64,000 nucleotides of DNA from the sequence record PQ287649.1. One strand, given 5' to 3'. Under the pieces are notes generated by a model. It did no database searches. It saw only the letters and a list, made by a program, of their open reading frames with translations, and had not been told where the DNA came from. Positions 1 to 37,811 of the stretch are shown here, piece by piece. Source of the stretch: Pseudomonas phage HHBS47_1. The translations under genes were made by a program, and so were the position numbers. Within the stretch, counting starts at the first letter, position 1. The number at the start of each line of letters is the position of its first letter.

Positions 1-3000
1 ATGACAGACGAACAAGACACATCCCTTTCCTATGCTAAATGGTTGGTTAAGTACCTGAGATGCAACAACCTACCCAAAGAACTGATTGATGATAAACGCC
101 TCCGTATTGATTGGGAGGCTCGAACAGACGATGAAACCCTTTTAGCTCACTTCAATGAAGACAGCTTAAGTGGTATTAAGACTGTTCGTTTTCTCAAGGA
201 CTTTTTCAACTACCAAGCGGGTTATGATCGGGAGACCCGGAATACCAGTTTCCTCAGAACCACCGAAGTGTTCAGGCAACAGGGGATCAATAACTTTTAC
301 TTTATCCTCCAATTGAACAATCCCCTGTTGAAAGGGGTGGATCCCTTTGATCCTAACCTCACTCCTGAGCAACAGGTGTGGGTCCTGGAGGAGTGTCGGA
401 GTAACTTTTGGTACTTCCTACGGGAAGTCTGCCGGTTAAAGCCGAATCAGCCCTTCTTAGCGAACCGGGGGAATATCAGTTTTATTTGGTCGTATTTGAA
501 TCACATTACCACCTACATGATCATGCCGCGGCAACAGGGTAAGCAGCAGCGGAACAGTGCTAAGGTTCGTATTGTACCTAAAGATACCCTGAAGACCATT
601 ACCCCTCAGGATACCTGGAAACGGATTGAACACCTACGGGTGGGGGATCGAGTCCTGGACCGTTCCGGGAAGCCGTGTCAGGTGATTGGTATTCATCCCC
701 AGGGTAAACGCCGGTTGTATCGTGTCATTACCAGTGATGGACGAGCTACAGACGTAGGGACTGAACATCTGTGGACCTTGAAGGATTATTCCAACTGCCT
801 CAATGGACGTGCACTCTGGAATGACTATTCGACCGTTGATGTCATTAACCTGTTGAAGAAGAAGGTGAAGCTTCAATTGCCGTTACCGGCTCCGGTACCC
901 GGGAGTGAACAGGACCTTCCTGTTGACCCGTACGTTCTCGGGTTGATCTATTGCGGACAAGATCAAGACGGTAAGGTTATTATCCCCACGCGTACGGATG
1001 CGGTTAAACAGTACGTAGTTGATCATCTCCCTCGGGGGGTAACAGTTATTCAGGGAGTGGCTAACAGTTGCTTAGAACGGACTGATAACCAACCTTATTT
1101 ATTCAACAGGGAACACGGTTTACCGGATCAATACCTAGAAGCCCCTTTAAACGCCCGGAGAGACCTCTTACAGGCGTTTTTAGACGTTAGGGGTAAGGTT
1201 GGTAGGGGTAAGGTCTTTATAGCCTTAAATCGCGTCCTAGGAGGTCAACTGGCGTATTTAGCCCGTAGTCTAGGTGGAACCGGTAAAGTCACCAAGAACG
1301 GAGTAGAGATTACCCTACCGGAAGAGGTACCTCCGTTCAAGTTCAGGGAAGAGAGTGTCGTCTTTGATAATCGGTTGCTGATCGACCGAGTGACCTTCGT
1401 AGGGGATGACGACTGTACCTGTATTGAAGTCGATAACAGTGAACAGTTGTATTTGACCGATGACTTCATTGTGACCCACAACACGGTATCGGTTCAGGTG
1501 ATTGACTTCTGGTTAACGTACATCATGGGCCGGGGGTATACGAGCCACTTGATTACCTTGAAGTCGGATAACCGAGCTCAGTTCATTGCGGCTATTAAAC
1601 AGATTCGGAGTTCAATTCCCTCGTATTTGATTAACTCGACCTACAAGGACAAGGATGCTGGTACCAGTCTGACCTACAAGGCCTTTGGGGAAGATAACGT
1701 TAATACGCTGTACATTAACGTCCCTCAGATCAGTCAGGATGCAGCAGGGGATCTCGGTCGGGGGTTACGGGTAGGGACTACCAACTACGATGAGTCCGGG
1801 TATATTCGGTTCATCGACACCATCATTGACGGGTGTTCCCCGTCCTCGCTAACGGAAATGGCGTTGTGTAGAGAGCAGGGGTTGCCGTATGGGATTACGC
1901 ACATTACGACCCCCAATACCACGCTCCATCCCAGCGGGGAGTTTATGTTCAATAAACTCATGAGTGCAACGGAGTGGCGGGAGAAGTTCTTTGATTGCTT
2001 CAGTGAGAGTCACTTGAGGCAGATGTTACTCAGGGCTTCCCCTACGAAGACAACCTCTCCGTCAGTCTCCATGGTGTACAATTACCTTCAACTGGGTAAG
2101 GACAAAGCCTGGGTGCGGGAAACCATTGACCTGCTAGGATTGAGTTTGGCGAAAGCCAAGATCGACTTATTGCTCATGTGGGTGGAAGATGGGGAGAATC
2201 GGTTGTTTGACGATGTGACCCGGGAATCCATTAACAACATGAAGCGGGACGTGGTGTGGAGTAAGGAGTATCGGGACTGTAACCTGTACGTGGACTTCTT
2301 TGTGACCCAACAGGAATTGTTGGAGATGGCAAAGAAGGAGTACAATGACCATTTCCTGATTGGTGTGGATACGTCCTCAGCCATTAACAAGGATGCCTGC
2401 ACCATTGTGATTCGCAGTATGAAGACGGGTAAGGTCATTGGGGTGGGACGATATCCCTTAACCTTCTTGGATGATGTCACAGCCATTGTTGTGGATTTGC
2501 TGGACGTGATTCAGAACAGCACCTTGATCATAGAGCGTAACTACGCACATCACATGATCGACAGTCTGTTGATTATGCTGCCGGCTAAGGGTATGGATCC
2601 CTTTAAACGGGTCTTTAACCAAATCTACCAAGACACCGTCAATAACGCTAAGGAGTTTGAGGAAGTCCAGAACACCAAATTTGCTTACCGGAATAAAGCG
2701 TTCTACCTGAAGTATAAACAATACTTCGGGTTCGTAACGACCAAGACCAGTCGGGAAGTCCTGTACGGCCTCATCCAAGAGGCGGTCGGGAATACCGGGT
2801 ACGGCCTCTGTTATGCGAAGCTCGCGGACGAATTGATCAACCTGAAACTCAAGGGGGATCGAATCGACCACGATGCGAAGCAGCACGATGACTTGGTCAT
2901 TGCGTGGCTACTGAGTTACTGGTTCATTAAGCTCGGGGAGAACAAGTCTTTGTACGGGATTCCTCCAGGGATTGCCTTAACGGACACCCGTAACTTACTG

Positions 3001-35522: not shown

Positions 35523-37811
35523 TTGATTATGCGAGCAACAGCAACTATCAGCAAAGCGAATCATTACTTCAGAATCAACGGGTTCTATGAGGAATTCGCG
35601 GTTCGGGTAATCTTACCGTTTTGTAAACTGAATCTCTGCAAGATGGCTAAGAAGCCAATACCGGGTACCCGGAAGCAGGCGTGGTTTGTTCAACACGTCT
35701 TTGCTCGGTCGAATTATGACAAGAGTGAATACCGGCTACCCATTGAAACCCTTAAAGAGTTTGTGGAATTTGCGGGCTACAGGGGGTATAAAGAATCCCG
35801 CTTGAAGATTCAGGATGAACCGGAGATCGAAGGCAAGGATGTTGTATTCGAATTCAATCCAGGGTTTGATCAGTTCAGGGAGGGTCAAGGTGAATGGATC
35901 GACTACATGCTGAGCGATGGTCACCTGAAGGTCAATAATGCGTCTACGGGCTTTGGGAAGATGCAACCGCTGTACGCGAAGATCAAAGTCCCGGGTGGTT
36001 GGAAGACAATGAGGGAGATGACCGTCGGTACCGAGGTCATTGCAGCGGATGGTACGGTCACTCAGGTGACTGGTGTTTACCCGCACGGTAAACAACCCAT
36101 TTACCGTTTGCACTTCGAAGACGGCCGTTATACCGATGCAGGACTGGATCACCTGTGGAAAGTGTTCACAGAGGAGACTCGGGCATGGACAGTCGTTGAT
36201 ACCCGTTCCGTACAGACCCTGTTGGCGAAAGAGCCAGAAGGGGTATTTATCCCTCTGTGTGAGCCTGAAGACGGTCCAGAGAAGCCCTTTGTAACGGACC
36301 AATTGGAAGGTTCCCGCCAACAACGGTTGGAACACCTACGACGACTCATGGATGAGAAAGGGTATGTGCGTGATGACGGTAGTCTGTCCTTTTCCAGTGA
36401 GGATGAGGTGGAAAGTACTACGGTTCAATACCTGGTTAGGAGTCTGGGGGGTATTGCTCGAAAGGTACCGTCTACAGGACTGTACCGCCGCAGGCAATAC
36501 CGGGTGTACATCAAGCACCCTCGTCCTGAGGAACTCTTTACCCTGACGAATAAGGGTGGTAACTTGGCATCAAAGTCGGGTAACCAGTCCCTTAAGCTCC
36601 GGGTGAACCGCATTGAATTCATTGGGGAACATGAAGCCCAGTGCATCTCTGTAGCACACCTGGATCGTCTGTACATCACGGACGACTTCATTGTCACCCA
36701 CAACACCTACATGGCCATCCACAGCATGGTGAAGATTGGTAAACGGACCTTAATCACCATGCAACCCCGTTACCAGATCAACTGGATACGGGAACTCAAC
36801 AAGATCGTTAAACTCATTCCAGGGGATCTCTTAATCTGGGAGAATACCCTGGAGTCGTTGTATGAGTGTTTAGAAGACGGGAAGTTTGATCCTAAGATTA
36901 TTATTATTCCGATGTCTCGTATTGAGGTCTTCCTCCGTAAGGGGAAAGAGACCCGAGACGGGTTACACATGGATGATTTGATCAAACGGATCAATCCGGG
37001 ATTAAGGATCATTGATGAAGGGCATGAAGCGATTCATCAGATCTTCTTGTCCTTAATGTTTGGGAATATCAAGAAACTCTTCCTGCTCTCAGCCACCTTG
37101 AAAGCAGACGATCCCTTTACGAACAAGATGTACCAGTACTTGTTCCCTAAACGGTTACGGTTAAAGGAGGCGGAACCCGAACATTACATCGATGTAGTGG
37201 CGTACCTGTATCGCCTCAACACCCGTCGTTATCATCTCAAGACGGAGCAGTTTGGAGCGTATAACGATAAGACGTTTGAAAAGAGCATCTTAAAGTCGGG
37301 TGTACTCCTGGCATTCTACTTTAAATTGGTCAATAAGGCCTTTAAGGAGTATTACCTCAATGTGAGGCGTGAAGGAACGAAGTGTTTGTTCTTCTTCTCC
37401 AGGGTCAGTATGTGCGATGCCATGTTGGAACTGTTCAGGAAAGAATATCCCGGCTGGGATTTCGAAACCTTTACTGGGGACGATTCCAAGCTGAAAGATA
37501 AGAAGGACAAGTACTTAAAGCACGAGATCATCATTACAACTCCGAACAGTTGTGGAACAGGTAAGGATATCGGGGGGTTGGTAACGGTGATCTGCGCCCA
37601 CACGGTTGCGTCGACTCAGGCTAATAAGCAGATCATTGGACGACTCAGGGCGTTGTCGGGTAAGTTCAATAATGAGATCGACCCTGCCTTTGTGTTCCTG
37701 GTGTGTTTGGACTTAGCGAAGCACGTGGAATATTTAGCCAAACGGGAACAGGTGTTCTTTGAGAAACAGAAGACCTTCAAGCGTATCAATTCGGAATGCT
37801 CCCTGGACTGA
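35523..37811 (+). CDS. SF2 (DExH-type) helicase interrupted by an intein in the Walker A motif
   Basis: The N-extein ends ...NNASTGFGK and the C-extein starts TYMAIH, which gives motif I ASTGFGKT. Motif II is RIIDEGHEA and motif III is FLLSATLKAD. Confidence 0.7.
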   Translation: MIMRATATISKANHYFRINGFYEEFAVRVILPFCKLNLCKMAKKPIPGTRKQAWFVQHVFARSNYDKSEYRLPIETLKEFVEFAGYRGYKESRLKIQDEPEIEGKDVVFEFNPGFDQFREGQGEWIDYMLSDGHLKVNNASTGFGKMQPLYAKIKVPGGWKTMREMTVGTEVIAADGTVTQVTGVYPHGKQPIYRLHFEDGRYTDAGLDHLWKVFTEETRAWTVVDTRSVQTLLAKEPEGVFIPLCEPEDGPEKPFVTDQLEGSRQQRLEHLRRLMDEKGYVRDDGSLSFSSEDEVESTTVQYLVRSLGGIARKVPSTGLYRRRQYRVYIKHPRPEELFTLTNKGGNLASKSGNQSLKLRVNRIEFIGEHEAQCISVAHLDRLYITDDFIVTHNTYMAIHSMVKIGKRTLITMQPRYQINWIRELNKIVKLIPGDLLIWENTLESLYECLEDGKFDPKIIIIPMSRIEVFLRKGKETRDGLHMDDLIKRINPGLRIIDEGHEAIHQIFLSLMFGNIKKLFLLSATLKADDPFTNKMYQYLFPKRLRLKEAEPEHYIDVVAYLYRLNTRRYHLKTEQFGAYNDKTFEKSILKSGVLLAFYFKLVNKAFKEYYLNVRREGTKCLFFFSRVSMCDAMLELFRKEYPGWDFETFTGDDSKLKDKKDKYLKHEIIITTPNSCGTGKDIGGLVTVICAHTVASTQANKQIIGRLRALSGKFNNEIDPAFVFLVCLDLAKHVEYLAKREQVFFEKQKTFKRINSECSLD
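35961..36704 (+). mobile_element. Intein 3 (248 aa) with a decayed LAGLIDADG domain
   Basis: The N-terminus is MQPLYAKIKVPGGWKTMREMTVGTEV. Block B is GLDHLWKV. The first LAGLIDADG motif is lost (PFVTDQLEGS) and the second is degenerate (LRRLMDEKGYV). Further blocks are YLVRSLGG and EAQCISVAHLDRLYITDDFIVTHN, followed by Thr. Its 3' end is nearly identical in nucleotide sequence to that of intein 2. Confidence 0.7.

Follow-up and report, generated by a model that had tools for sequence, protein, structure and literature searches.

Three putative class-3 inteins in the terminase, RNA polymerase beta' and helicase genes of an EL-like Pseudomonas jumbo phage

Our analysis of a 64-kb stretch of DNA from Pseudomonas phage HHBS47_1 (PQ287649.1; all 64,000 nt are referred to here as the window) indicates that three homologous protein inserts encoded on it are very probably genuine class-3 (Trp-Cys-Thr, WCT) inteins, each interrupting an essential gene of an EL-like jumbo phage. 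The host genes are those for the large terminase subunit (TerL), the C-terminal half of the beta' subunit of a non-virion RNA polymerase (nvRNAP) and a superfamily 2 (SF2) helicase, and the assignment is drawn from sequence comparisons. In megablast searches, the window was 98.2-98.7% identical to Pseudomonas phage EL (NC_007623 / AJ697969; genus Elvirus), with EL nt 11078 as the counterpart of window nt 1. Together with seven further records, the window forms a species-level group. EL itself, a member of the family Chimalliviridae, is a nucleus-forming jumbo phage related to phiKZ, and its genome was sequenced in 2005.

Homology, class-3 residues and junctions of the inserts

A six-frame scan located exactly three copies of DDFIVTHN in the window (nt 1459-1482, 34161-34184 and 36681-36704), all on the + strand and each within a long + strand open reading frame (ORF). 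This octapeptide, followed by Thr, Ser and Thr, respectively, closes all three inserts. An initial annotation of the window had placed the inserts between Gly-Lys and Thr/Ser across nt 544-36704, and this quoted start (544) and end (36704) agree with the ORF scan (Table 1). The inserts are homologous to one another, with a similarity far beyond chance: BLASTP returned E = 5e-38 for the beta' against the helicase insert and about 3e-31 for the beta' against the TerL insert. No fourth intein copy was found within the window by tblastn. The motifs HLW, YL(A/V)RSLGG and xxxCI(E/T/S)(V/I) occur in the inserts as annotated. The N-terminal block (A/S)K(I/V)(K/R)(I/V)P was found in the beta' and helicase inserts, but the TerL insert reads AKVRIVP, one residue longer than that pattern, and continues with an 11-residue insertion in block A. 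The insertion (VPKDTLKTITPQD; intein residues ~10-32, window 571-640) distinguishes the TerL intein from every other aligned member of the family. A counterpart of comparable length (KPVKTGNVTPSD) is retained by P0111, a TerL ortholog that shares 75% identity with the window TerL over the C-extein.

Table 1. Coordinates of the three precursor genes, their inteins and selected intein features (insertion points are marked ^).
Feature	Position (nt)	Strand	Remarks
TerL precursor gene	1-3267	+	ORF; 98.7% identity to EL gene annotated terminase large subunit
TerL exteins	N-extein 1-543; C-extein 1483-3267	+	
Putative TerL intein, 313 aa (aa 182-494)	544-1482	+	QQRNSAKV...DDFIVTHN, +1 Thr; Walker A, RQQGK^T
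nvRNAP beta' C-terminal-half precursor gene	32355-35459	+	phiKZ gp74 homologue; EL gp039 'RNA polymerase beta subunit'
Putative beta' intein, 364 aa (aa 247-610)	33093-34184	+	AGVLSSKIKIPGGW...DDFIVTHN, +1 Ser; ERNAAGK^SLTNNGK, bridge-helix start
beta' intein Trp B:12	33288-33290	+	
beta' intein LAGLIDADG homing-endonuclease core	33486-33818	+	motif 1 LGVLLGDG nt 33486-33509; motif 2 LLDTDG nt 33801-33818
beta' intein Cys F:4	34122-34124	+	
SF2 helicase precursor gene	35529-37811	+	EL gp040 homologue; EL annotation 'DNA helicase'
Putative helicase intein, 248 aa (aa 145-392)	35961-36704	+	MQPLYAKIKVPGGW...DDFIVTHN, +1 Thr; motif I, ASTGFGK^T

When the inserts were compared with PDB sequences by phmmer, all significant matches were inteins. 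The beta' insert matched the class-3 Mycobacterium smegmatis (Msm) DnaBi1 intein (6BS8) in register with E = 1.3e-10, and further matches were the class-3 M. chimaera (Mch) DnaB1 intein (6RIX, 6RIY), gp41-1 (6QAZ) and its WCT-grafted variant 6RIZ; a profile search of the PDB additionally found PI-SceI. The alignments begin at residue 4 of both partners, so their N-termini are in register. On the class-3 structures, the Trp of HLW falls on that of HQW, the Cys of QCI on that of RCV and the Thr of THN on the Thr of THN, and it is with the Cys of RCVEV in 6BS8 that the Cys of xxxC(I) in the inserts aligns. With block B numbered from its conserved Gly (G-R-Y-T-D-V-S-P-D-H-L-W; pattern GRxTDxxxxHLW), His is B:10 and Trp is B:12. 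All three inserts possess His B:10, Trp B:12, Cys F:4, Thr G:5 and His-Asn, with Thr or Ser at position +1, and residue 1 is non-nucleophilic in each (Gln in TerL, Ala in beta', Met in the helicase). Class 3 is defined by the lack of a residue-1 nucleophile together with W(B:12), C(F:4) and T(G:5) (PMC2807308, PMC3196547, PMC5050341). The alignment with solved class-3 inteins bears out the WCT signature, without an N-terminal nucleophile, that the initial annotation had read from the motifs. WCT inteins of this kind have been described in DnaB, RecG, SNF2 and phage large terminases, mostly at P-loops (Tori et al. 2010, PMC2807308), and the Lys^Thr position has been termed the 'classic P-loop intein insertion' (Kelley et al. 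2016, PMC5050341).

To place the inserts in a wider family, a profile of the three was searched exhaustively against 1.84 billion cluster representatives. It returned 20,102 proteins at E <= 1e-3, 5,988 of them at E <= 1e-30, and family statistics were taken from 178 near-complete domains in the best 150 of the 20,102 proteins. His B:10, Cys F:4 and Thr G:5 are each present in 178/178 domains and Trp B:12 in 176/178; the complete WCT triplet likewise occurs in 176/178, as does the THN ending. At position +1, 141 domains have Thr, 34 Ser and 3 Cys. As residue 1, 110 domains have Ala and 23 Pro, and only 13 have Ser or Cys. Gly-Lys precedes 126 of the 178. The N-terminal consensus of the family, AQPLx(A/S)K(I/V)x(T/V)P, shows that the residues before (A/S)K are the ordinary block A of the clade. 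They had been considered unusual in the initial annotation, a view that does not hold given this consensus and the 163/178 domains in which WCT is accompanied by a non-nucleophilic residue 1. Homologues of the EL gp40-type helicase make up 48 of the best 150 proteins and TerL homologues 4, and in the helicase homologues that were checked (P0009, P0011 and P0013) the intein follows the same G-K. Matches to PHROGs ('terminase large subunit', 'DNA primase', 'DnaC-like helicase loader') all arise via embedded inteins and are uninformative on the hosts.

Several results weigh against the class-3 intein assignment. Pfam Hint models matched the inserts only below threshold. When precursors and isolated inteins were searched with Pfam and NCBIfam, LAGLIDADG_3/Hom_end in the beta' intein were the only models above threshold; these libraries capture this intein clade poorly. 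Further, an AlphaFold model built from a 3-sequence alignment reached a mean predicted local distance difference test (pLDDT) score of only 46.7. Because of this poor model and the sub-threshold Hint matches, it is sequence homology to the PDB inteins that supports the predicted HINT fold. Finally, the TerL insert has the block A insertion described above, and its residue-1 Gln is found in only 1/178 family domains, which makes its competence the least certain of the three. Countering the doubt about TerL, the insertion is kept in the ortholog P0111, and TerL is essential in a phage that is nevertheless culturable.

The junctions were established by comparison with intein-less alleles. Phage vB_PaeM_GXNNE2 (GXNNE2; PV400809), with about 98% DNA identity, has a beta' gene coding for 670 aa and a helicase gene coding for 512 aa. 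The two products are 99-100% identical to the window exteins, with exactly residues 247-610 and 145-392 missing, and the alignment gap at the beta' allele is exactly 1092 nt. The empty sites of GXNNE2 read GCGGGTAAG^AGCTTGACC in beta' and TTTGGGAAG^ACATATATG in the helicase gene. Both empty alleles also lie side by side on the metagenomic Logan contig SRR14194054, where the helicase allele again codes for 512 aa. The TerL insert is present in 8/8 Elvirus genomes, and for this gene the uninterrupted form was seen in Vibrio phage VP4B, whose TerL (57% identity) reads ILPRQQGK^TVTAQ. Homologous inserts occupy the same bond in the TerL of Vibrio phage Aphrodite1 (ELSVDAKIK...DDYIVTHN^T) and Klebsiella phage N1M2 (AQPLDSKIR...DNFVVTHN^T). 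The empty alleles and the VP4B TerL show that Gly-Lys immediately precedes the inserts, which open with Gln, Ala and Met and close with the Asn before Thr, Ser and Thr. Comparison with intein-free homologues thus makes the junctions exact, and an N-terminal junction at (A/S)K, a possibility raised in the initial annotation, is excluded by the empty alleles.

As the initial annotation had proposed, removing the inserts rebuilds the motifs of the hosts. The unspliced helicase matched only Helicase_C, whereas the in silico spliced protein matched DEAD (E = 2.2e-5, spanning motif I) and ResIII in addition to Helicase_C. Spliced TerL aligns without a break to the TerL of 313 jumbo-phage records. 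Spliced beta' also aligns to its homologues without a break, and matches PHIKZ074 (7OGP chain D, E = 8e-32) and the C-terminal subunit of the AR9 nvRNAP beta' (7S00 chain D).

Endonuclease state and evolutionary history

The three inteins differ in the state of their endonuclease domains. Both LAGLIDADG catalytic Asp residues are kept in the beta' intein (LLGDG and LLDTDG), which matches Pfam LAGLIDADG_3 with E = 2.6e-12 and Hom_end with E = 8e-5; its endonuclease appears to be intact. The TerL intein has lost both, with a three-residue gap over the LGD of motif 1 and DVRG as motif 2. In the helicase intein, the endonuclease domain is without its N-terminal half (~90 residues, motif 1 among them), and motif 2 reads DEKG. 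As a description of these states, the 'decay series' of the initial annotation is apt. As a statement that the three are recent copies of one element it fails, since inteins at the same sites elsewhere are closer to them.

This is evident from their identities. At the amino-acid level, the beta' and helicase inteins share 40-51% identity and the TerL intein shares about 27% with the others, and DNA similarity among the three is mostly undetectable. When only splicing-domain columns are considered, the window's own inteins are 41-54% identical (54% for beta' against helicase). Over the same columns, same-site inteins in other phages reach 61-65% for beta' and 61-68% for the helicase, and for the TerL intein the value is 65% with its ortholog and does not exceed 47% with any other. 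The window differs from EL by 2.1-2.3% inside the inteins and by roughly 2% in the region overall; such similar values fit vertical inheritance. At the DNA level, the junctions GGTAAG^ACG, GGTAAA^AGC and GGGAAG^ACC are all present as originally quoted. Their likeness to a common GGTAAR^A target, however, does not extend beyond the 7 nt set by the Gly-Lys-Ser/Thr codons: outside this core, only 7-11 of 35 positions match among the three sites, which is the level expected by chance.

A separate observation concerns the 3' ends of the beta' and helicase inteins, whose last 24 nt are identical (GACGACTTCATTGTCACCCACAAC) and whose last 42 nt match at 39 positions (34143-34184 and 36663-36704). The remainder of the two inteins is about 68% identical in DNA or not alignable. 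Local gene conversion or a codon-level constraint are possible sources of the shared end.

Taken together, the identity pattern and the target comparison support a history in which the three inteins would be old, site-specific, vertically inherited homing elements, with the jumps between GK^S/T sites lying deep in the history of the family. The identity and target-site comparisons gave no evidence for recent spread within the genome or for one endonuclease serving three sites. An alternative, developed from the ectopic homing suggested in the initial annotation, is that a single intein spread recently within this genome to three similar GGTAAR^A targets, its copies now representing successive stages of decay. 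We consider this improbable. The common GK^S/T context, the identical DDFIVTHN, the 24 identical nt at the ends of the beta' and helicase inteins and the resemblance of the beta' site, AAGK^S, to a Walker A tail would all be in keeping with such a spread, and the 126/178 family domains that follow GK do point to jumps between P-loop-like sites over evolutionary time. Set against this are the mutual identity of only 27-50%, the near lack of detectable DNA similarity and the chance-level targets outside the 7-nt core. Moreover, inteins at the same site in other phages resemble each of the three more than its companions in the window do, and distant phages have orthologues of the beta', helicase and TerL inteins.

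Predicted splicing of the precursors

Splicing, the branched intermediate and endonuclease activity are inferred here, with the mechanism taken from characterised class-3 inteins. Each of the three precursors would be translated whole. Since residue 1 (Gln, Ala or Met) is not nucleophilic, Cys F:4 would attack the peptide bond between Lys and residue 1 in its place, yielding a branched thioester at block F. The N-extein would be handed to the +1 Thr/Ser, the terminal Asn would cyclise with help from the penultimate His, and an O-N shift would restore the sequence ...GK-T/S..., giving an active terminase, helicase and polymerase.

It could be argued that at least one of the inserts, most plausibly that of TerL, no longer splices and has become a permanent domain, or that it splices conditionally and serves as a post-translational switch. 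The atypical block A insertion, the rare residue-1 Gln, the dead endonuclease and fixation in 8/8 Elvirus genomes are features one might expect of a TerL insert that has ceased to splice. For conditional splicing there is a documented precedent in the class-3 Msm DnaBi1 intein (PMC6195587). Nevertheless, ATP binding is difficult to envisage with 313 aa separating Lys and Thr of Walker A, the catalytic residues (H, W, C, T, H, N and +1 Thr) are all intact in TerL, and GKT is contiguous in intein-less homologues. We therefore regard loss or conditional control of splicing as unlikely. A last alternative, that the inserts belong to class 1, or are intein relics, and have their true N-terminal junction a few residues further in, at a Ser/Thr or at (A/S)K, so that the first 4-6 residues would be extein, finds a hint in the Ser at positions 5-6 of the beta' and TerL inserts but is highly improbable, because the empty alleles lack the whole segment from directly after Gly-Lys, the N-termini align residue for residue with class-3 structures and the first 6 residues of the helicase insert (MQPLYA) include neither Ser nor Thr nor Cys.

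Bridge-helix site, linked alleles and relation to known inteins

With the inserts most probably being class-3 inteins, the position of the beta' intein deserves attention. Its insertion point, ERNAAGK^SLTNNGKALKSSEWFHRK, aligns with ALGARK^ALITNYQQVRNSGYLTRK of AR9 and with the bridge-helix segment of E. coli, which we take to read HGARK^GLADTALKTANSGYLTRR. By this alignment, the beta' intein breaks the start of the bridge helix at the catalytic centre and not an ATPase P-loop. Locally, (A/S)GK^S is indeed similar to a Walker A tail, and the intein-less relatives Joad (GAGK^S) and YC1 (AAGK^S) have it too. The beta' segment was found in 297 phage records, with a second matching place in only 7, which is about the number of intein-bearing Elvirus records; the one split record listed (IR-QUMS) breaks at the beta' intein site. 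A search of 5.8 billion proteins for beta' homologues yielded three further metagenomic ones (P0172, P0189 and P0223) with exteins 52-61% identical and an intein at the same bond, their junctions reading SGK^AQPL...T(R/S/H)N^SLI. The bridge-helix intein is an established allele of a wider phage clade, present in at least four phage lineages. The inteins of P0172 and P0189 end in TRN and TSN, without the penultimate His. Their block B reads HDW or HEW, and their LAGLIDADG motifs are degenerate. In the papers searched, we found none that names the ORF39 host as an nvRNAP beta' subunit or places the insertion in the bridge helix.

In keeping with the endonuclease states, the TerL intein is fixed in the eight Elvirus genomes, whereas the beta' intein is polymorphic among near-identical phages. 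In every genome examined, the helicase intein was present or absent together with the beta' intein, although lineage is a confounding factor in this sample. The helicase site lies 1,776 bp downstream of the beta' site. It is a reasonable idea that the helicase intein hitch-hikes with the beta' intein by co-conversion, and if so, the action of the beta' endonuclease would account for their joint presence and absence. A fuller version of this scenario, in which the beta' intein would be a P-loop-adapted class-3 lineage that took the bridge helix via a Walker-A-like (A/S)GK^S, its still-active endonuclease mobilising the helicase intein of Elvirus by co-conversion, is offered only tentatively, as a possibility with the balance of probability against it. 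If true, one could speculate further that splicing in the enzymes of packaging, replication and middle/late transcription acts as a shared post-translational checkpoint.

Single-nucleotide polymorphism density was examined around the junctions for co-conversion tracts; clustering next to the helicase site was suggestive, but there was much noise in the three-way comparison. When the intein-plus (window) and intein-minus (GXNNE2) helicase genes are compared, synonymous differences cluster at the insertion site (35916-35966 and 36705-36750), with 4 in the 45 nt upstream and 3 in the 45 nt downstream, compared with about 2% elsewhere. A co-conversion tract or variation in the target site may lie behind this pattern. 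Another difference lies at window 39236-39286, where intein-less strains have a 1.24-kb insertion containing a free-standing HNH_3 endonuclease gene (325 aa). It was seen in a Logan contig (L015, 7886-9126), and GXNNE2 has an insertion at the same position with a 978-nt coding sequence. The window and EL have only about 51-60 bp at this site, after a hairpin and before a minus-strand RNAP-subunit gene (39203-40504). In the few genomes seen, the HNH_3 insertion is anti-correlated with the beta' and helicase inteins.

The closest characterised relatives are the class-3 inteins of mycobacteriophages and mycobacteria (MP-Be DnaB, MP-Catera gp206, Msm DnaBi1 6BS8 and Mch DnaB1 6RIX). They share with the window inteins WCT, His B:10, His-Asn, a +1 Thr/Ser, the lack of a residue-1 nucleophile and a Walker A Lys^Ser/Thr site in helicases and large terminases, and they are phage-borne and often carry LAGLIDADG. 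In contrast, the window hosts belong to jumbo phages of Gram-negative bacteria, one of the three inteins lies in an RNA polymerase, and sequence identity is low, being detected chiefly in blocks A-B and F-G. Among solved HINT domains, that of the gp41-1 split intein from a cyanophage-like helicase gp41 scored best in the profile search (6RIZ, E = 2.4e-12; native 6QAZ, 6.5e-9). It is likewise phage-type with a helicase host, but native gp41-1 is class-1, with a residue-1 Cys, and naturally split, whereas the window inteins are contiguous and lack a residue-1 nucleophile. Archaeal RNAP A'/A'' inteins (NCBIfam PRK14898) also reside in the largest RNAP subunit, and the endonuclease domain of the beta' intein matches them weakly; this match covers only the LAGLIDADG domain (E = 0.002), and the archaeal inteins are not phage-encoded.

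In EL itself, inteins occur in the same genes as in the window with about 98% identity, and nothing substantive differs. Outside the window, EL ORF166, another helicase gene, has a further class-3 intein of 262 aa on the minus strand (AJ697969 nt 169186-169971; L007 44187-44972), which reads GSGK^AMPLSTRVKVPNGW...DDYIVTHN^T (GSGK^AMPL...VTHN^T). The EL genome therefore has four such inteins, not three. InBase presumably lists the same number for PhiEL (PP-PhiEL ORF11, ORF39, ORF40 and Helicase). LAGLIDADG endonucleases that accompany intein sequences in EL are reportedly mentioned by Hertveldt et al. 2005 in their abstract. Our literature search found no EL-specific description of the inteins.

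Annotations of the host genes reflect the shared intein. In PV400809, OR493421 and OP599913, the beta' and helicase genes bear the label 'terminase large subunit, intein-containing', intein-less alleles included (GXNNE2, YC1), and the original EL record calls TerL and both other intein hosts 'putative ATP-dependent DNA helicase'. The intein common to these genes has carried the terminase/helicase mislabelling through the annotation of beta' and helicase genes. Among other records, PQ516283 (Pseudomonas phage vB_PQ1, 184 kb) is matched by the window only as many short broken pieces (8-14 places), and its assembly looks fragmented or rearranged. Elsewhere in the window, the adjacent 478-aa ORFs at 26605-28041 and 28056-29492 were considered as a duplication, which was rejected as they have no mutual similarity.

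In conclusion, the finding is correct and already known in kind, as class-3 inteins in the P-loops of phage terminases and helicases are well documented. What this analysis adds is modest, namely the bridge-helix assignment and the natural empty alleles. For annotation, it is a warning that an intein leads pipelines to call beta' and helicase genes 'terminase large subunit'. With regard to the intein family, the bridge-helix intein of a multisubunit RNAP represents a non-ATPase target of a P-loop-type intein. The near-isogenic intein-plus (EL-type) and intein-minus (GXNNE2) alleles of an essential RNAP subunit and a helicase are suited to studies of homing, co-conversion and fitness cost in a nucleus-forming jumbo phage.

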